NCBI GenBank assembly: GCA_963815195.1
Contig: CAWFGE010000008.1
Location: 320,001-384,000 of the forward strand
Direction: 5' to 3'
DNA: 64,000 nucleotides
From: an uncultured Planctomycetaceae bacterium
Lineage (GTDB): Bacteria; Planctomycetota; Planctomycetia; Planctomycetales; Planctomycetaceae
Both the position numbers and the translations under genes were made by a program. The notes below the pieces were generated by a model. That model did no database searches, had not been told where the DNA came from, and worked only from the letters and a program-made list of their open reading frames with translations. Positions 29,481 to 47,700 of the stretch are shown in pieces (position 1 is the first letter of the stretch; each line of letters opens with the position of its first letter).

Positions 29481-29592
29481 GACCTGAGCCTTTTTGTTGT
29501 TCGTCGAACCAGAAGGTCGTGCAGCCCTTCAAGATTCTAATCAATTTTCTGCGGGCGAGCTAACCCCTGAAGTGCCGCCGGGCGGCGCGCGA

Positions 29593-29702
29593 TGTCCGCC
29601 GGGAATCGAATCGGGCACCGCCCGAAGGATGGTCCTACGAGCTTCACGAAGCCTGCGGCTCGGTGCCCGAGCCAGGGCGTTCTGCCGTTTGCCGACCGAG
29701 CC
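29593..29702 (-). pseudogene. Chimeric or degenerate tRNA: Leu-like 5' half joined via mini-repeats to a T-arm of another tRNA
   Basis: 5' GGCTCGGTCGGCAAACGGCAG D-arm and 3' TTCGATTCCCGGCGGAC; acceptor halves do not pair. Confidence 0.55.
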
Positions 29703-29716
29703 GATTGTGTTTTCAA

Positions 29717-29790
29717 TACCCAGAGCAGGAATCGAACCTGCAAACACTCGGGTTTAAGCCGAGTCGCTCTGCCAGTTGGCGTATCTGGGC
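29717..29790 (-). tRNA. tRNA-Leu(TAA), short variable loop
   Basis: GCCCAGA/TCTGGGT acceptor; CTCGG-CT TAA AC-CCGAG; GCAGG TTCGATT CCTGC. Confidence 0.85.
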
Positions 29791-29802
29791 CTATTCTTTC
29801 AG

Positions 29803-29874
29803 TAGTCCCGGACGGAATCGAACCATCGTTTCCTGGACGTCAACCAAGCGTCGTCACCATTGGACCACGGGACT
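29803..29874 (-). tRNA. tRNA-Val(GAC)
   Basis: AGTCCCG/CGGGACT; CTTGG-TT GAC GT-CCAGG; GATGG TTCGATT CCGTC. Confidence 0.85.
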
Positions 29875-29882
29875 GAATTAAG

Positions 29883-29980
29883 TGGACCCACCCGGAATTG
29901 CACCAGGGCACCGATGGGCCGCAGGCGGGATTGATCCTCCGGCCTGCGACGCCGGCATCTTCCTGTTGGACGATGAGCCC
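29883..29980 (-). tRNA. tRNA-Ala(CGC) with ~30-nt insertion in the variable region (possibly pseudo)
   Basis: G3:T70 acceptor GGGCTCA/TGGGTCC; CCGGC-GT CGC AG-GCCGG; inserted mini-element at 29906-29937. Confidence 0.7.
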
Positions 29981-30008
29981 CTTTGGCAAGCGAAGGTTTG
30001 CTCGCAAG

Positions 30009-30079
30009 CACGCCCCCAAGGACTTGAACCCTGACCAACTGGGTTGGAGCCAGTCATGCTGCGATGACACCAGAGGCGT
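30009..30079 (-). tRNA. tRNA-Trp(CCA)
   Basis: ACGCCTC/GGGGCGT; ACTGG-CT CCA AC-CCAGT; CAGGG TTCAAGT CCTTG. Confidence 0.85.
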
Positions 30080-30090
30080 GTGTTGTTGAG

Positions 30091-30175
30091 CGGAAGCCGT
30101 GAGACTCGAACTCACAAGCGGTTTACGCCGCCACCTGTTTTCAAGACAGGCTCCTCATCCGGCCGGATGACTTCC
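30091..30175 (-). tRNA. tRNA-Ser(TGA)
   Basis: GGAAGTC/GGCTTCC; CCTGT-CT TGA AA-ACAGG; long variable arm GCGG-CGTAAA-CCGC; G73. Confidence 0.9.
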
Positions 30176-30184
30176 GATTTTTAG

Positions 30185-30217
30185 CTGCGGGAGTTGAATC
30201 GAACCAACGGTTTCCTG
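30185..30217 (-). pseudogene. 3' half of a tRNA (T-arm plus acceptor 3' strand), 5' half missing; possibly Gln
   Basis: CAGG AAACC GTTGG TTCGATT CAAC TCCCGCA G; upstream sequence is not tRNA-like. Confidence 0.6.
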
Positions 30218-30361
30218 AGATGGAGGGATGGAGCAATTTGATAGACGAATTGCCGATACATCTTCCGATCGAATTGCCAGACTGGCGAGAAGAAATCAAT
30301 GCAGCCTAGCCTGACGATGAAACGCTTGTTCTTTTCAAACGAGGACAGGAAACTTGAAAGG

Positions 30362-30436
30362 CTGCGGAGGCAGGAATCGAACCTGCGTCTGGGCGATTAA
30401 CAGTCGCCTTCCCGTACCAACACAGGACCCACCGCA
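30362..30436 (-). tRNA. tRNA-Asn(GTT)
   Basis: TGCGGTG/CTCCGCA; GGCGA-CT GTT AA-TCGCC; GCAGG TTCGATT CCTGC. Confidence 0.85.
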
Positions 30437-30462
30437 GAATTATGAAACCGTCAATGGCGGAG

Positions 30463-30547
30463 TCAGGATGGTCGGGACCAATCCGGACTTCGGCCGATCG
30501 GTGCCCGAACCGGCGGTCGGCGGATGACCAGACTTTCCCATATCCTG
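30463..30547 (-). pseudogene. Disrupted tRNA-Pro-like gene (mini-element in T-loop, anticodon arm lost)
   Basis: CAGGATA/CATCCTG acceptor resembling Pro (C1:G72, A73); T-loop interrupted by 30475-30506. Confidence 0.6.
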
Positions 30548-30555
30548 AAATCGAA

Positions 30556-30626
30556 AGCGCCCAGCGGGAGTCGAACCCGCAATTCCGCCATGGCAAGGCG
30601 GTAGGTTTCCGCTACATCATGGGCGC
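30556..30626 (-). tRNA. tRNA-Gly(GCC)
   Basis: GCGCCCA/TGGGCGC, T73; CCGCC-TT GCC AT-GGCGG; GCGGG TTCGACT CCCGC. Confidence 0.85.
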
Positions 30627-30638
30627 GGCTTGATTGAG

Positions 30639-30711
30639 TGGGACCGGAGGGGCTCGAACCCTCACCGAACCGGTTAAGAGCCGGTCATGCTGCCGCTAAC
30701 ACCTCGATCCC
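30639..30711 (-). tRNA. tRNA-Lys(CTT)
   Basis: GGGATCG/CGGTCCC; ACCGG-CT CTT AA-CCGGT; GAGGG TTCGAGC CCCTC. Confidence 0.9.
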
Positions 30712-30728
30712 GTGTTGATATTCTTGAT

Positions 30729-30800
30729 TGAGCCTGGATGGAGTCGAACCATCGTCTGGCCCTTATAAGGAGCCGGCTCTGACCGTTGAGCTACAGGCCC
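30729..30800 (-). tRNA. tRNA-Ile(TAT)
   Basis: GGGCCTG/CAGGCTC, A73; canonical D-arm TAGCTCAACGGTCAGAGC; GGCTC-CT TAT AA-GGGCC. Confidence 0.9.
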
Positions 30801-30815
30801 TTTTTCGTTTGGCAA

Positions 30816-30887
30816 TGAGGCCGGAGGGATTTGAACCCCCACCGTGCAGGTTAAAAGCCTGCTGTGCTCCCGTTACACCACGACCCC
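30816..30887 (-). tRNA. tRNA-Lys(TTT)
   Basis: GGGGTCG/CGGCCTC; GCAGG-CT TTT AA-CCTGC; GGGGG TTCAAAT CCCTC. Confidence 0.9.
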
Positions 30888-30951
30888 GGAATTGATCGTG
30901 GCGTCTGTTTCCATCGCTGCAAAAAAAACATGAGATAGCCTCTCGGAAAAG

Positions 30952-31024
30952 TAGCCCGGGAAGGAATCGAACCTTCATTTCCGCCTTATCAGGGCGGCGT
31001 CCTAAACCATTGAACGACCGGGCT
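30952..31024 (-). tRNA. tRNA-Ile(GAT)
   Basis: AGCCCGG/CCGGGCT; CCGCC-CT GAT AA-GGCGG; GAAGG TTCGATT CCTTC. Confidence 0.9.
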
Positions 31025-31102
31025 AATTGGTGAATTGTAAGTCGGGATGGCCGGACTCGAACCGGCGACTCCGTGCTCCCAAGGCACGTGGGGTGCCGCT
31101 CG

Positions 31103-32571
31103 CCACCCCTTTCAACATGTTAGATTTTTGCTATAAGTCGCTTCTACAGGGATTGTTGTATCAAACCTTATGGAGGCGGCAAGGATGTGGCCCGACGCTG
31201 TGCTTGATCGTTTTGTGGAAGAATGTCCAGCGGCAGTGATGGTTCGAGCAACGCTCGAGAATCTTGTGTCGCCGGATCGACTGGATGAGATTTTCGCCGA
31301 CGCTTCGCAGAGACAATACGAGAAAGAATTGCTGTTTTCGCAAGTGGTGGCCCTGATGATGGGCGTGGCGACGCGGACGCACACGTCGGTCCATGCCGGG
31401 TACTTGGCCGCCAAGGAGCAACTGGCGGTTTCGCCGGCCGCACTTTATGGCAAGTTGAACCGTCTGGAACCCGGCCTTTCGGCGACGATGATCCGGGAAA
31501 CGAGCCAGGACGCGGCTCAAGTCATCGATGCCATGCCGGGAGCATGCCGCGAACTTTTGCCGGGCTATCACGTGCAGTATTTGGACGGGAATCATTTGGC
31601 GGCGACTGAGCATCGGCTGGCGGAATTGCGCGTCACGCGGGAAGGCCCTTTGCCGGGCCAGACCTTGGCGCTTCTGGACGCGCAGCGGGATCTGATTTCG
31701 GAACTGCTCCCGTGTGAAGACGGGCATGCTCAGGAACGTTCGCTTCTGCCGGAGCTTCTGGAATGGATCCGGGCCGAGACGGTGACAATCGCCGACCGGA
31801 ACTTCTGCACGACCAAGTTTCTGTTTGGAATTGTCAAGCAGTCGGCCTACTTTGTCATTCGCCAACACGCTTCGACACTCACCTGGAAACTCGTCGGTCG
31901 CCGGAAACGCATCGGACGCATCGAAACGGGTCTTGTTTTCGAGCAGTCGGCCGAGCTGTCCCAGGGTGAAGAGACGTTGCGAGTCCGGCGGATCACCATC
32001 CAATTGGATACGCCCACAGAGAATGGTGACACTGAGATTCACATCCTGACCAACTTGCCTGTCAAAGTCGCCAATGCGCGAAAAGTGGCTTTTCTGTATC
32101 GCAAGCGCTGGACGATTGAAGAAGCCTTCCAAACTCTGACCGAGGTGTTGCGCTGCGAAGTGGAGACGCTGGGCTACCCCAAGGCGGCGCTGTTCGCCTT
32201 CGCCACGGCGGTTTTGGCTTATAACACCTATGCCGTGGTGAAAGCGGCGCTGCGATCGGTTCACGGTGAAGAAACGATCGATGAAGAACTGTCGGACTAC
32301 CACCTGACGCAGGACGTGACTGCCACGACGGTGGGCATGAACATCGCCGTGGACGCGGAAATCTGGGAGGGCTATCAAATCATGCCACCTCGAAAACTCG
32401 CGATCGAGTTGGTGCGACTCGCGAAACGCATCGACCTGACGCGTTACCCCAAAAAGAAACGCGGGCCGAAAAAACCACAGCCTCGAAAAAAGAGCGGCAA
32501 ACGGAATCACCATATCTCCACCGCGCAACTCTGGCCAAATCCAGGGGTAAGTGACATGTTGAAAGGGGTGG
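31103..32571 (+). mobile_element. IS4-family insertion sequence
   Basis: Perfect 18-bp terminal inverted repeats CCACCCCTTTCAACATGT (31103-31120, 32554-32571); flanking direct repeat GTGCCGCTC; single DDE transposase. Confidence 0.9.
31170..32554 (+). CDS. IS4-family DDE transposase
   Basis: LDG, IADRNF, Y(RK)RWTIEEAF YREK-like motif; true stop probably TGA 32552-32554 after an indel near 32533. Confidence 0.85.
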
Positions 32572-32602
32572 GTGCCGCTCCCCTACATCCCGAGTTGTCA
32601 AA

Positions 32603-32692
32603 TAGCCCGGACCACGCTGCGGGCGCTGCCCGGAGTCGAACCCGATCCCAACCGAGTTTCGTAAACTCAGTGCCACATCCCGTGGACAGGCC
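32603..32692 (-). pseudogene. tRNA-Arg(ACG)-like gene with mini-element in the 3' T-stem
   Basis: CTGAGT-TT ACG AA-ACTCGG; TTCGACT loop; insert 32609-32631. Confidence 0.65.
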
Positions 32693-32701
32693 AGGTTGCA
32701 G

Positions 32702-32771
32702 TAGCCCGAAGTGGAGTCGAACCACTCAACCAACCTTCGGAGGGTTAGGGCCAGAATCCGCTGGCCGGGCC
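32702..32771 (-). tRNA. tRNA-Arg(CCG), atypical compact fold
   Basis: GGCCCGG/TCGGGCT; CTAACC-CT CCG AA-GGTTGG; AGTGG TTCGACT CCACT; 70 nt. Confidence 0.7.
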
Positions 32772-32810
32772 ATGATGGTGTTTTTGCTAGTGTTGTTGAA
32801 CTTGCCGAAG

Positions 32811-32883
32811 TACCCCGTAGGAGAATTGAACTCCTATCTGCGGATTGAAAGCCCGCGATCCTAAACCGTTAGACGAACGGGGC
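32811..32883 (-). tRNA. tRNA-Glu(TTC), first gene of the array
   Basis: GCCCCGT/ACGGGGT; GCGGG-CT TTC AA-TCCGC; AGGAG TTCAATT CTCCT. Confidence 0.9.
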
Positions 32884-41710: not shown

Positions 41711-44700
41711 CTAAATCTCCAGGAGCAGCCAGTCCAAATCGCCGGCGAAGGCTTCATCATGCAGGTCGGTCACGCGGTCGCCGTCCTCATTGAGATTGAA
41801 CCAGAACCAATCGTCGCCCACGGAACCGGTGAGAACATCGGCGGAGCCGTCCCGTTGGACCGTGGTTTGATTGAGGACGACCGGCGCGCTCTTATCGCTC
41901 AGCGTGTTTATCCGCTCGGAATAAGTCAGATCCGTTCGCGTCCAGACAAGCATGACGAGGTTCAGCAACGAGGGAATGCGGTCGTAAATGATCGAACCGG
42001 CAATGAGGATGTCATCATCGGTGTTGCCCATGATGCGGTCGGCGTCCGGTGCCGCCAATTTCCAGATCCCGGCCGGCTCCTCCCAAAAGAAGGTCTTCGC
42101 CCGCACCGCCCAGGAGGACGTCATTGCCCGCTCCGCCTTTGAGCCGGTCATCGCCGGTGTCGCCGTAGAGCCACGCGGAAATCTCGACGTTCGCGCTAAC
42201 TTGGACATCATCATCTCCAGCCTGGCCGAAGACCACCAGTCGCGTGAGCATACCCGGCGGAACGGCGTAATGCGCGGTGGCCACGTCCACGGTGATCCCG
42301 TCGATCTGGCGCGTCAGTTCCAGATCGAATCCGGTCGCCGTCGCCTGAAACACGCCGACGAGCGTCTCCTGACTCGTCGAGGACAGCGGCGAATCCACCG
42401 TGGCGGTCAACGATCCCGAGGCCAAATGCCGCGAAAGGTCGCCCGAGAGTTGAATATCATCGGCTTCCAGCGTCCCGCCGACGGTCAATGTGTATTGGCC
42501 GGCGTTAAGCGGATCGTACTGAAGCGCCATTTCGGCGATGGTGATCCGGCCGGAGATCGAGGTCTCGACGCCGTGATCGTCCCGCACGGTGAGTGTGACC
42601 AGATACTCCCCGGCCGCGGTGAAGATGTGCGTCGGCGTAAACGCGCCCCCATCGGCGATCGAATGGAAGTCGATCACGGTCCCATCGCCGAAGTCCCACC
42701 GCACCAGTTCGGGCGTATGCGGTCCCGGAAACGTGATCGCTCCCGTGAAGGAGAGTTCCTGCCCGCGGACGCCGGAGAAGCCGGCCTGGTCCACGTTCAA
42801 TTCGGGACCGGAGAGCGAGAGCGTCAACGGCATGGCGACAACGTGAAGGCTAAAGAAAGCCGGTTGGCTGATGCCGCCGTCATCGTCCGCGACCACGAGA
42901 GACAGCACAAAGTCGCCGAGCGCATCGGGAGTGAAGTCGAATGTCGCCGCATCGACGATGGTTCCGGTCGGCAGGGCGTAAGGCAGGCCGTCTTTTATCA
43001 CGCTCCAGGCATAGCTGCTGGTGTCGGCGGTGCCGGGATCGTCGAAACTCGCCTGATATGTCGACTCCCGTGCGATGACCAAACCGTCATCCCCCAGGAT
43101 GGCGACGTTCTGCGGGGCGACGTTGTTGACGAACACGGTCACGGTGCCGCTCGCTTGCCCGCCGTCGTCGTCAGTGACGCTGAACGTGATCTGATAGGTG
43201 CCGTTGTCGGCGGGGACGAAATCGTAGCTCGCCCCCGTCGCCCCGGGAACGGTTTGTCCATCGATGGCCCATTGGAAACTGTGGGTATCGCTGCCGGGAT
43301 CTGTGAAGACGCCCGTCAGCATCAACGAGCTGCCTTCATCAAGGAACACCTGATTTTGGCTGCGGTCGCCCGCAGTGTCTGGGCCGATGAGCACGTCCAC
43401 ATCTTGCGGAGCGACGTTGTTGACTCGAATCGCCGCATCGATCGTTTGCATGCCGTCCACCAGGACCACGAGCGGGAACACATCGGGTCCACCGGAGGGG
43501 TCATCCCCATAGACATGGGACGTGAGGAACCGTGCGGTGGCGGAATCGAACACGGCCTGCGAGGTTTGCCCGTCGCCCCAAGCAATCTCGACAACTTCGT
43601 TGCCCGTCGCGTTCGTCAGCGCGACCGATGCGCTCACCCGGCCGCCTTCGTCGACGTCCGTTTGATCCAACCGGAGATGAACGTCGCCCTCGACAAAGTC
43701 CGCACCGCCGCTGGGATCCAAAAACACATCGCCTTCGGCGGCCCGAAATGCCACCACCTGCTCGCTGCCGCTGCTGCCGAACAATTTGTCCGCCCCGGCT
43801 CCGCCAATCAACACGTCGCCCGCCGGCTGCCCAGAGGCCGAGGGCTGTTCCGTCGGCGTTGTCTTGTACAAGAACAACTCGTACTGCCCCTGGTCGGTGT
43901 CGGTCACGCCGGTGTGGGCGGGATTGGCGGCCGCAAACGCATCCACGTCGAAGTTGGGTTCGTAAACGCCGAACTCCGGCGAATAAAAACGGAACGTGTC
44001 CACCTCGACGTAATAAACTCCATCCGCCGGCAAGATCACATCGAGTAACAGAGAATCGGTCGATTCGATGTTGTCATCGTTGAAGGCTCCCAAGGGACTG
44101 CCGTAATAATCCAGTTTATTCCCGTTCGAATCGTAGAGCCGGAGCAGGGAATCGATGGGATTGGCAATGCGATCGAGCGTGCTCGAATAGAGTTCCAGCG
44201 TGACCACGTCCCCGGCGCGGCCTTGGAAGGCATAGAAGTCGCTTTCGCTGTGGCCGGTGGCATCGAGGACAATTTCCCCAGCCACGTTCAACGTCGAGAC
44301 CATCCGATCGCCGCCCGCCAGGGGAACATTCATCATCTCGAGTTCGCCCAGATCCTGCGCCGCGTGCTGCGTCCCGCCGACGGTGATCGAATCAGACTTT
44401 TGTTCGTCGGGAAGTTCAATGGCCGTCCTGCCCGTCTCGGCGAAGGCCAGTTTGACGGATTCCCGTTCCCCGAAGTACGGATTGCCGACGGCATCGACGA
44501 GCGAAGTGCCCACCGACGCGGGCGACGCCAACAGATGCAAACGGGTCTCCACCGCAGATTCCGGCCCGCTGTAAGTCGGCAGGATGCGGTCGAATTTGAA
44601 GTTTGGAGACAGCCCGCTGCCGATCGGACCGAAGGCATCCTGATGCCGGAGTCCGAATTGGTGGCCCAGTTCGTGAGCGGCGATCGTGGAGGACAGGGCA

Positions 44701-47700
44701 ATGAAATGGTCGGACGTGCCCGGCAGCCGCTTCGGACCGAGAAAACCGTTGACATCCACAACGACGGTGCCGGAAAGACCCAAGAGCCGCCAGTTGAGCG
44801 ATTCCGCCCGGCCGCCCGGCTGCGCGACGCCGCCAATGATCGGCGTGGCATTGAAGAGCACCTGGAAGTAGCGGCCCGACTCGGGGCGGGTCTCTGTGAA
44901 CTGGATGTCAAACGCCCCGAAGTCGGCGGCCATCCGGGCCGCGATCGCATTCCGCTCCTCCGGCGAATAAACGTGCTCGCCCGAGTCGGTCGCCGAGTCG
45001 AAATCCAGATACACGAGCTTGGTGAAGTCGGACTGCAGAATGTCGTCGCCGCCCCGGCCGTCGAGGGTATCCGCGCCGCCTCGGCCGATGAGCTCGATTC
45101 GAGCGGTCGTTGCCGGCGATCACATCGGCGAAGGCGGTGCCGAACACGTCCTCCACGCCGCTGGGATCGTTGAGCGTCAGCGTCAGGTTGCCGCCGACGA
45201 TTTGCGCAACAGTAAGGCCCAAATCCAGCGTGACGCCGTTCGTGAACGCGTCGAAATCGAGCATATCCTCATCGAGATTCACGGCTTCGTTGATGGCGTC
45301 GTTTCCGCCGGCATCCGCGCCGAAATTGTAAACATCGCTGCCCGCGCCGCCGTCGAGCACATCATTGCCCGCGCCGCCGTCCAAGGTATCGTTTCCGATG
45401 CTGCCGATCAGAACATCATCGCCCCCGCCGCCCACCAAAGCCACGTTGCCGCTGAAGGCCGAAGCGTTCAAAACGTTGTTATGCTCCCCGCCCGTGAGCT
45501 CGACCCCCTCAAAGCCGTCCAGCGGGATGACGGTGCTGCCGAGGGTCAGCGAGTTGTTATTGAGGACGAGGTCGGCGTCGGCGTAATAGAGGAACCAGTC
45601 GGTGCCGGTTCCGGTGCCGTCCACGTTGTCGCCGAAGTATCGATCCTGGCCGCGGCCAACGATGCGATCGTCGCCTTCGCCGCCGACGATGAGATTGGCC
45701 CCGCCGGTGCCGAAGATCAGATCGTTCCCGTCCCCGCCGAACAGCGTGTCATCGTCGGTCGCGGTGGTGGTGTCGTTGCCGTCGCCGGCGTAGAGCGTGT
45801 CGTCTCCCATGCCGCCGTCCAGCGAATCGTTCCCGTCGCTGCCGATGAGGGTGTCGTTGCCCATGCCGCCGTCGAGGGACTCGTTGCCGTCGCCTCCGAC
45901 AAGCGAATCGTTTCCGTCGCCGCCCATCAGCGTATCATCGCCCGTACCGGCATCGAGAGAATCCTCCCCGCCGCCGGCACTTAATGTGTCGTTGCCCGCG
46001 CCGCCGTCGAGCGAATCGTTGCCGCCGCCGCCGAAGATCAAATCGTTCCCGTCGCCGCCGAAGAGCGTATCGTCGCCGTACTCGTTTGTGTCGGTGCTGT
46101 CGCCGTTGCCCTCGCCCGCAATCAGCGTGTCGTTGCCCATGCCGCCGTCGAGCGAATCGTTGCCGTCCCCGGAGACCAGCGTATCGTTGCCGTCCGCGCC
46201 GGTGAGCGAATCGTTCCCCGAACCGCCGTCGAGGGTGTCATTCCCCACCCCGCCATCCAGCGAATCATTCCCGCCGCCGCCGAAGATCAGGTTCGCTTCC
46301 TCGTTGCCGCTGAGGTTATCGGTCTGCCCGGAACCGAGGACGTTCTCAAACGTGCCCTTGAGCGTGATCGTGTCGCCGCCGTCTGTGGCGGTTTGAGGCG
46401 CATCGGTCGCCCCCAAATCGAGCGTGACGCCTTCGTCCACGGCGGCGAAGCTGATGGTGTCGTTGCCGTCGGCCCCACTTTCATCAAGAACCTTGTCGCT
46501 GAAGCCCAGAATAAGGTACAGATCGTCTCCAGCCCCGCCGACCAGGCTGTCGTTGCCAAGGCTGGTGAGGGTGTCATTGCCGGCCCCGCCGACCAGCGTA
46601 TCGTCCCCCGAACCGCCGTCGAGGTAATCGTCCCCCGAACCCATGACGACGAAATCGTCGCCGGCCCCGGCGAACACGGCCACGGGGATTGTCACCGCCG
46701 AACTTATCGTCACAGTATCGTTGCCCGCGTCGGTCGCGATCAGAATCGCAATCGCCGGCCCGGTATCAATCGCCGGTCCCCCGTTGAAGATCACCGTGAC
46801 GGCCGTGGGATCGTCGGTCGTGTCGGCGGTGGGCGCGATGTCGATTCTGTCGTCCTGATCCCTGCCCCCGATGAACAAGACCTCGGCGTTGCCCTGCCCG
46901 CCGTCGTCGTCAACCGCGTTTAATATCACGCGGGCCACGCCGCCCGACGGCCGAGGAAAACTCAACGTGGATTGGTCGTCCGTCAGCCCCGTCAGCGGCA
47001 CCCCGTCAACCGTCACGGTCCAAGCATATTGATACGCCTCCGCCGGACTTGGATCCGCCACCACGGCCCGCAAGCGGACCGTCATGCCGTCGCTTCCATC
47101 GTCAACGACGTTCGGTTGCGGCGGGACGTTGGTCACGGTCGCGGACGACTGCTCGAGAACCGCCGCGCCGCTGGCATCGGTCACCGTGACCGACATCAGA
47201 TAATCGTCGCTCGCCGTCCCTGGGAGATTGTCGTCGGGGTATCGGTGCTTGACGGTAAAGCTCGAGACGCCCGCATTCAGAGTGAACGTCGTCTCGGGAC
47301 ATGATCGAACGAGAATCCCAACTCGCCGGGGGCAACGACCAGCGTATCGCTCGTCCCGTCCCCCCAATAAACGAACACCGTATGTTGATCGTCCGGATCG
47401 GGGGCTTCAAACAGGCCGTCCAAACGAAAATCGCGGCTCTCGGGCAGATCGAACGTGACCAGTCCGAATGCTGCTTCCGGGGCGGTGGTGGGCTCGAGGA
47501 TCGTGACGATCAAGCTGTCAGGCAAAATCGTGAGCGGCTGGCTGAAGTTTGCCGCCTGGGCCAGTGAAAACTCGCTGGTGCTTCCGCCGGCCGCGGTCGC
47601 GGTCGCAGTGACGGATTCCCCCGCGACCGTGTATGCGGAGAGCGTGACATCAAAGCCGGCGGCGCCCACAGAATTTGTGGTCACGCTCGTCGATCCAAGA

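Follow-up and report, generated by a model that had tools for sequence, protein, structure and literature searches.

The stretch of DNA analysed here (the window) comprises 64,000 nucleotides (nt) from an uncultured Planctomycetaceae bacterium (assembly GCA_963815195.1, contig CAWFGE010000008.1, positions 320,001 to 384,000). It contains a decaying accessory tRNA array on the minus strand (29593..32883; 12 ARAGORN calls plus remnants), in which five copies of a very short hairpin element are found. The element is mobile, has fixed ends and is inserted by replacement of host bases, without target duplication. Its mobility is evident from independent sites in many lineages, ten copies in a single tRNA array (L127; loci, genomes and contigs are given as L, G and C numbers), nesting of the element in itself and a patchy spread. 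In the explanation that we favour, and to which we assign a probability of about one half as a complete model, it is a non-autonomous mini-hairpin of the SDR/REP kind that would move as folded single-stranded DNA through an HUH/Y1 enzyme acting in trans. A preliminary description of the array had already proposed an ultra-short non-autonomous mobile unit, and the empty sites and many further copies reported below bear this out.

The unit reads 5'-GGGC-ACC(G/A)-[variable paired stem, mostly with a G(N)1-3A loop]-TGGT-C-X-3'; the preliminary description gave the other strand. The stem is 7 bp long, begins with ACC(G/A) and ends with TGGT; it encloses a short loop and is followed by a C and one variable base, X. 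The usual form is 23 nt, longer stems extend the unit up to 33 nt, and an extra 5' C is present in some insertions. The conservation of the hairpin ends noted earlier was recovered, but the strand that folds is most likely complementary to the one first described, since the loops are G..A in 61 of 68 copies from the genome of origin and T..C in none, counted with no filter on the loop. According to the available part of PMC13037366, d(GNA)/(GNNA) loops form very stable DNA hairpins and are weaker as RNA. Among 20 hand-picked variants of 22 nt, 97.9% of the stem cells are paired and 18 two-sided changes occur in 3 pairs, a level reached by 0 of 500 shuffles; covariation was also looked for in a competing 5' hairpin, where none was found. 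The unit contains no stop codon in any of the six frames, and the exchange of 23 nt for 5 adds a net 18 nt, so that the reading frame is kept.

By its features the unit resembles a minimal REP or a DNA mini-hairpin. One variant reads as a circular permutation of a GTAG-tagged REP of which the genome of origin has 7 copies, and this REP is a possible origin of the unit, an idea held with low confidence because the permuted variant is a minority form. Tandem duplications of 17 nt of the 5' part of the element, probably due to slippage, were seen at G000:C5:30717, C6:90408, C12:1121641 and L313.

All five strings listed in the preliminary description match the window letter for letter at their coordinates and strands, and all lie inside tRNA genes or remnants of the minus-strand array, in both orientations (two sense, three antisense). 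Empty counterparts of these sites were sought by flank-anchored searches in paralogous and related tRNA arrays. Host bases had been thought to be replaced sometimes; replacement is confirmed, and the restriction is wrong, since each of the four whole copies occupies a place at which empty homologous tRNAs have 5 nt. The whole 23-nt element at 29613..29635 (plus strand in the GGGC-hairpin reading, minus in the earlier one) takes the place of 5 nt of the variable loop and 5' T-stem in the remnant of an Arg-type tRNA. The 3' part of this tRNA extends over 29593..29649 (minus strand; identified from sequence and homologues, with ends set by eye) and received no call from ARAGORN or Rfam. The site has 5 nt in 4/5 flank-anchored empty homologues and is filled at the same place in L006. 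A long 32-nt variant at 29906..29937 (plus strand) stands for 5 nt in the variable loop of a tRNA-Ala(CGC), with 5 nt in 2/2 flank-anchored empty homologues and a filled allele in the sister genome L002 as well. A second 32-nt variant, at 30475..30506 (minus strand), replaces the last 4 nt of the T-loop and the first T-stem base of a Pro-type tRNA, where all 8 of 8 flank-anchored homologues have 5 nt. The whole 23-nt element at 32609..32631 (minus strand) is inserted for 5 nt at the T-stem/acceptor junction of an Arg(ACG)-like tRNA (32603..32692, minus strand; isotype and ends by eye), which it breaks. A flank-anchored search found no orthologue of this last site; 20/28 anchored T-arm/acceptor homologues from other tRNA species have 5 nt there, and the same position is filled in L008, L010, L038, L140, L366 and L409.

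The fifth copy, at 29650..29668 (minus strand), is truncated to 19 nt with its 3' end gone. It begins in the anticodon loop of a Leu tRNA, so the claim that all copies lie at or near the T-arm does not hold. Only the 5' half of the Leu tRNA is left (29669..29702, minus strand, ends by eye), cut at the truncated element, which is the end point of a deletion joining this half to the Arg-type 3' part. Relatives carry intact Leu genes, and L002 has an element stub at the same Leu site followed by a different deletion. In general the element breaks most of the tRNAs it enters and stands at deletion end points; at L267 another copy truncates a DUF559 gene at a deletion. The tRNA-Ala(CGC) (29883..29980, minus strand) is called by Rfam (RF00005, 29.2 bits, just over the cut-off) with the long element as an oversized variable arm, and its T-stem and G3-U70 pair are intact. 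The filled gene may still be transcribed or even charged, because its filled allele is shared by L002 and contigs of an RNA run.

The genome of origin (8.87 Mb, 25 contigs) holds many further copies, about 85 in total. A search for the loose pattern suggested at first returned only about twice the background (105 matches against 49 expected), whereas a strict 22-nt class gave 67 matches against 0 for the reversed pattern. Among 86 matches, 30 lie in a REP-like repeat A (REP-A; 226 empty), 42 in a repeat B (REP-B; 339 empty) and 14 elsewhere, several of the last by chance. Insertion into tRNA genes is thus not a speciality of the element, most copies being in REP-like repeats and others in insertion sequences (IS), genes and spacers. 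Outside the two repeats we found copies in an IS21 transposase gene, where an empty unit of a tandem repeat lies between two filled ones, an in-frame copy at the hinge of an SMC gene, and copies in a small open reading frame (ORF), the rplA-rplJ gap, an intron-like stretch and one spacer. The host of the copy at C23:482929 resembles the 5' part of a group II intron by eye, and an Rfam search gave no match. Six copies fall within about 7.6 kb of tRNA arrays, compared with about 7 outside REP-A, REP-B and arrays in 8.86 Mb. The sixth array copy interrupts a tRNA-Ala(TGC) of the C12 array and corresponds to 5 nt in 2/2 empty homologues. None occurs in 55 scattered tRNA calls, which is expected because of selection and because the caller misses broken genes.

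REP-B also surrounds a RAYT-type Y1 gene (G000:C13:617068-617658, L031), which lies amid five REP-B copies and is likely the REPtron of this family of several hundred repeats. The filled REPs were therefore probably multiplied by the enzyme of the host repeat. Two REP-B subtypes have mostly different terminal bases, which suggests at least two insertions. Several other REP/Y1 pairs are present, and so is a truncated class 3 Y1 (an 81-aa remnant at C23:554826-555068). At L266 (G000:C22:294921-298205) copies of a palindrome of the CCCTCTCC type flank a DUF559 gene in inverted orientation; in other genomes, repeats of this family are the most frequent hosts of the element.

The footprint seen in the tRNAs recurs at other targets. 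Comparison of empty with filled sites, as had been proposed, revealed empty homologues that mostly have 5 nt. Among alleles with strict flanks, 121/162 in REP-A have 5 nt versus 17/162 with 23 nt, and 154/190 in REP-B versus 27/190. Across site families, 71/191 have an empty homologue and are hence resolvable. A 23-mer for 5 nt after C fits 37 of the 71, and this C equals the host base in 28/37, so that it is mostly host-provided; a 24-mer carrying its own 5' C, again for 5 nt, fits 19 of the 71, with base -1 equal to that of the host in 7/19. The event is accordingly best described as a 23(24)-for-5 replacement, and the absence of target duplication noted earlier holds at every resolved site. 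Base -1 is C in 151/186 site families, insertion being mostly just 3' of C in either orientation. The preference for hairpin DNA proposed earlier is borne out weakly: the emptied sites fold better than the local median in 121/186 families, yet outdo every one of 12 random controls in just 27, and ordinary coding DNA is a frequent target. Flank pairing did not exceed that of shuffled sequences beyond the first positions, and strict targeting of hairpin tips was rejected on this ground. A reciprocal swap, in which the donor receives the 5 nt of the target, was rejected as well, as the 5 nt of nearly every empty REP allele are a point variant of the 5-mer native to the REP.

The distribution of the element is patchy, and the family is absent from most close relatives. 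A 13-base pattern gave 27-154 matches in 9/251 genomes of the same taxonomic family, as against 1-8 control matches in the same genomes, while a strict pattern gave none in 400 other genomes drawn across the phylum. Across the class, a hairpin pattern matched in 24/400 genomes, mostly once (the control gave single matches in 14), with 65 copies in G683 and 6 in G840. Scans of named genomes and of metagenomes returned at least 112 and at least 124 stretches, respectively. Among the matches listed in the former, the 80 titled holders are all metagenome-assembled genomes (MAGs), 77 of them Planctomycetota (Planctomycetaceae, Pirellulales, Thermoguttaceae and others), 2 Gemmatimonadota and 1 Allosphingosinicella. 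Most of 48 viral matches to a looser pattern may be chance.

The matches listed in the two scans together comprise 244 distinct strict sites, of which 127 have REP-like flanks (a lower bound), 20 belong to tRNA arrays, 19 to genes of IS or group II introns (scored with a small IS library built from these same loci) and 78 are elsewhere. Within tRNAs the element entered the D-loop, anticodon loop, variable loop, T-loop and T-stem/acceptor in both orientations, and a contig from a viral collection (L038) carries 5 copies. Pfam searches with 42 site-spanning ORFs identified IS66, IS21, IstB, IS91-type Y2, three DDE families and reverse transcriptase (RT), together with ordinary genes such as those for an aminotransferase, a glycosyltransferase and a ZIP transporter. 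Four IS91-type genes were entered at one position, which we take to be the catalytic tyrosine motif. Of two copies associated with Rfam matches to group II introns, one is inside a match that scores below the gathering cut-off (L443) and the other is next to a strong one (L441). Copies are nested in copies up to three deep (L357, L359, L417). Close pairs (L074, L152, L247, L437, L446-L450, L452, L461, L465) enclose ordinary genes, tRNA arrays and intron remains. An HNH-like gene, recognised by eye, recurs beside planctomycete tRNA arrays (L038/L189, L343, L376, L384, L448), and one such gene is on a 94-kb contig of a viral collection.

In the model that we favour, the unit would move as folded single-stranded DNA, and a trans-acting enzyme, most likely of the HUH/Y1 type (TnpA-REP-like), would bind the conserved hairpin foot and use the 5' tetranucleotide to choose cuts 3' of C. 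The unit could then be joined between two target cuts 5 nt apart, or at one cut followed by fixed trimming. Y1/HUH is the first-choice enzyme because the foot tetranucleotide and the cuts after C recall the substrates of TnpA-REP, which, in the parts of the sources available, combine a tetranucleotide with an imperfect hairpin and are cleaved 3' of short C-containing sites (PMC8266576, PMC3333891). Exposure of single-stranded DNA, together with survival in dispensable DNA, would account for the accumulation in tRNA arrays and mobile elements; targeting and mere tolerance of insertions both fit the data.

Several observations weigh against this model. An HUH/RAYT or IS110 enzyme had been suggested at the outset, and transposase genes bounded by the same ends were looked for, yet none of 85 loci from 5-6 element-rich genomes (36 Y1, 10 DUF559, 9 GIY-YIG and 30 IS110) is bounded by the element. 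The Y1 loci comprised 6 from the genome of origin and 30/32 listed in five carriers, and the IS110 loci 30/37 matches, all in incomplete MAGs. Pfam searches with 96/212 neighbouring ORFs gave no transposase or other mobilising enzyme. The known Y1 reaction does not explain the 5-nt loss, because it makes a single target cut at which nothing is lost, and the tag is GGGC instead of GT(A/G)G. The bases at -2/-1 are CC in 65 and GC in 49 of the 186 families, where a simple guide rule predicts GC. Neither the 23-for-5 nor the 24-for-5 exchange fits 15/71 resolved families, and the empty alleles are homologues, not ancestors. ViennaRNA did not rank the covarying fold first for the five copies of the window, and only 14/24 loops are G..A in loci of five other carriers, with CTT and GGT loops in two genomes. 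Finally, no filled/empty polymorphism within one population was seen in the contigs of the sequencing runs.

Six further Y1-like loci of the genome of origin, found by tblastn, did not include a cognate Y1 bounded by the element. At L273 the copy is nested in a REP. Clustering of 4070 ORFs near elements at 332 loci recovered targets only (RT, IS66, IS21, IS91-type and array HNH genes) and no bounded partner.

Other explanations have to be weighed against the favoured one. The unit might be RNA-templated, a hairpin transcript being copied into a staggered nick by an RT, for example that of a group II intron, with a second-strand cut that loses 5 nt. Some retroelements do delete target sequence during target-primed reverse transcription. 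Genes for structured RNAs and RT loci are frequent targets (tRNA arrays, group II intron domains, RT genes), low-copy genomes hold their few copies mainly in tRNA arrays and introns (L437/L441, L439, L443, L446-L450), and the genome of origin has 3 RT-like loci. However, the loops are mostly GNA triloops or GNTA, the type of DNA mini-hairpins and not the GNRA/UNCG type, the ends are precise with neither a poly-A tail nor 5' truncation, and both orientations occur inside one gene (L426, L127). We regard this explanation as unlikely, if one to be taken seriously. It also seems unlikely to us that no dedicated transposase is involved and that replication or repair picks up a very stable mini-hairpin (through template switching, recognition by primase, or end joining at nicks), its sequence being kept because only this fold survives or is copied. 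The lack of an enzyme gene linked to the element would agree with capture, as would the occurrence of mini-hairpins such as CCGAAGG at priming sites (available part of PMC13037366). At a few sites, e.g. 29613 in the window, the lost bases resemble the element end, and there is a tendency towards complementarity between base -1 and X (Fisher p 3e-5, with kin that are not independent). On the other hand, fixed donor ends and a near-fixed 5-nt loss across unrelated targets suggest the geometry of an enzyme; X equals the last base of the host in just 18/37 cases versus 15.5 by shuffling and is usually donor-derived; and the family is missing from most close relatives, as described above. A dedicated, undescribed enzyme that swaps a hairpin for five bases on single-stranded DNA and prefers mobile or repeated DNA, so that mobile DNA is stamped and inactivated with the tolerance of the host and most host proteins stay in frame, appears decidedly doubtful. 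Should it exist, its preferred targets would be IS genes, domain V of group II introns, RT genes, horizontally moving tRNA arrays and REPs.

The remaining possibilities are remoter. IS110 members target REPs without duplication, and IS110 genes are present in 4/5 carrier genomes, so an excision footprint of a larger IS (IS110/IS1111 or other) or a bridge-RNA-guided mini-element was considered. No longer parent bounded by these ends was seen in the genome of origin or in 30 IS110 loci, one carrier (G107, 94% complete) has no IS110 match, and IS110-type recombination loses no target bases; we consider this origin very improbable. The excision scar of the preliminary description is not supported either, because a scar explains neither the constant 5-nt loss nor the self-nesting. 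That the units are tiny tRNA introns spliced from a precursor is hardly credible. Hairpin inserts do occur at several tRNA positions and the Ala gene still scores as a tRNA, but they stand in both orientations, most copies are outside tRNAs, and removal of the element cannot restore the tRNA because 5 host nt are gone. The filled Ala form is also found in two short contigs of the RNA run X20, a weak observation as DNA may be present and the flank is short.

A sequencing or assembly artefact at stable hairpins is scarcely conceivable to us. It could be argued from the listed titled holders all being MAGs and from an effect of mini-hairpins on sequencing (available part of PMC13037366). Against it stand the lineage-specific covarying cores, shared and diverged insertions at orthologous sites (L002, L004, L006), and the presence of the element in collections of many projects together with its absence from most genomes. 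Moreover, contigs of an independent assembly are identical letter for letter: in run X1, possibly the source sample, one contig extends across the 30475-30506 copy with zero differences and more than 31 nt on either side, and two others cover the 29613 and 32609 copies without differences, one side being only 24 nt. Run X2 holds the empty Ala allele of a relative; runs X2, X8 and X20 contain small shares that represent relatives rather than this strain.

The closest known kind are probably the SDR elements (small dispersed repeats) of Nostoc and relatives, compared here by features and not by sequence. Elhai et al. (2008, Genome Res 18:1484) reportedly described SDR1-8 as covarying hairpins of 21-27 nt dispersed in diverse contexts; these are said to be nested in other repeats and in themselves, to lack terminal inverted repeats and to have an unknown mobilising enzyme. 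The planctomycete unit is similar in its 23-24 nt core form with a covarying hairpin and in its nesting in repeats and itself. In the parts of the sources available, no SDR-like repeat is given for HIP1-rich cyanobacteria outside the Nostocaceae, and SDR5 is a precise insertion within HIP1 (PMC5861425, PMC4390886, PMC3116915). The unit differs in its near-constant 5-nt loss and in how strongly it is represented in tRNA arrays, IS genes and group II introns. We have not filed it as an SDR because it belongs to another phylum, its targets are not HIP1 and the sequences are not comparable.

The unit fails the defining tests of REP/REPIN, IS200/IS605, miniature inverted-repeat transposable elements (MITEs), IS110 and tRNA introns. 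With REP/REPIN-RAYT and class 3 Y1 repeats it shares a 5' tetranucleotide at the foot of an imperfect hairpin, a length of 20-40 nt, many copies and the lack of a target duplication, as these repeats are portrayed in the available parts of PMC6006769, PMC8266576, PMC3333891, PMC3116915 and PMC3733652. It differs in its GGGC tag (REP: GT(A/G)G or CGTC), in occurring as singlets instead of doublets, in flanking no tnpA gene (0/36 Y1 loci, 6 genomes), and in parasitising other REPs, entering genes and losing 5 target nt. The ends of IS200/IS605 elements likewise have a guide-like tetranucleotide and a subterminal hairpin and insert 3' of a preferred base without duplication; our unit has no transposase gene and only one hairpin, and target bases are lost, whereas IS200/IS605 loses none. 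A MITE was rejected, since the unit lacks terminal inverted repeats and every resolved site is free of target duplication; membership in IS110/IS1111 was rejected with a parent bearing the same ends in 0/30 loci, and tRNA introns on account of both orientations and the missing host bases. Rickettsia palindromic elements also insert in frame into protein genes (PMC3733652, in the part available), but the planctomycete unit is much shorter, mostly nested in other repeats and from a different lineage. The host locus itself corresponds to the long tRNA arrays (L-arrays), whose tRNA genes are supernumerary and move horizontally; their description in the available part of PMC8421152 does not mention a mini-hairpin that inactivates array genes. 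Within the literature searched, most subscription papers lying outside its scope, we found no description of the element, of a fixed 5-nt loss or of a concentration in tRNA arrays and mobile DNA. Two supplements of PMC6006769 contain no match to the element ends or to planctomycete names.

At 23 nt the hairpin is among the smallest jumping units known, and how repeats of 20-30 nt move has been an open question since the work on SDRs and REPs. The present family offers sharp constraints in this respect: the donor ends are fixed, the fold covaries on one strand, a C before the site is preferred and 5 nt are lost almost constantly, a loss that agrees with none of the known chemistries of DDE, IS200/IS605 and IS110 elements. 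It provides a route for the decay of accessory tRNA arrays and other mobile elements and brings 6-residue peptides into proteins in frame. Furthermore, it hides tRNA genes from annotation tools. An enzyme inserting a 23-mer with a fixed in-frame footprint would be a useful tool.

Other features of the window and of related arrays were noted. The host of the 30475..30506 copy is a Pro-type tRNA pseudogene (30463..30547, minus strand; ends by eye and by homologue comparison) whose T-loop is broken by the element and which also lacks about 17 nt, the length of an anticodon arm, in a neat hairpin deletion. ARAGORN run on the array with introns and a lowered threshold returned only noise, and Rfam gave no element-specific match in the window, the single weak hit being sX2 (E 0.11) at 29567-29670. 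An unrelated DDE insertion sequence (PF01609; 31103..32571, plus strand) with 17-bp inverted ends and a 9-bp direct repeat is not bounded by the mini-hairpin. It splits a tRNA-Pro(TGG) in the D-arm, ARAGORN still calling the downstream part, and its contig depth in run X1 is about tenfold higher, which suggests many copies. At 30183-30350 another tRNA has kept its 3' half, and its 5' half is replaced by about 130 nt of unrelated sequence, with no link to the element. Two further tRNA arrays are present in the genome of origin (G000:C5:30370-31947 and G000:C12:573209-575422); the C12 array is largely intact and is followed by an ORF resembling TROVE/Ro60 by eye. Elsewhere in the window, at 42015-47367 on the minus strand, are large, unrelated ORFs with RTX calcium-binding repeats and PKD and peptidase domains.

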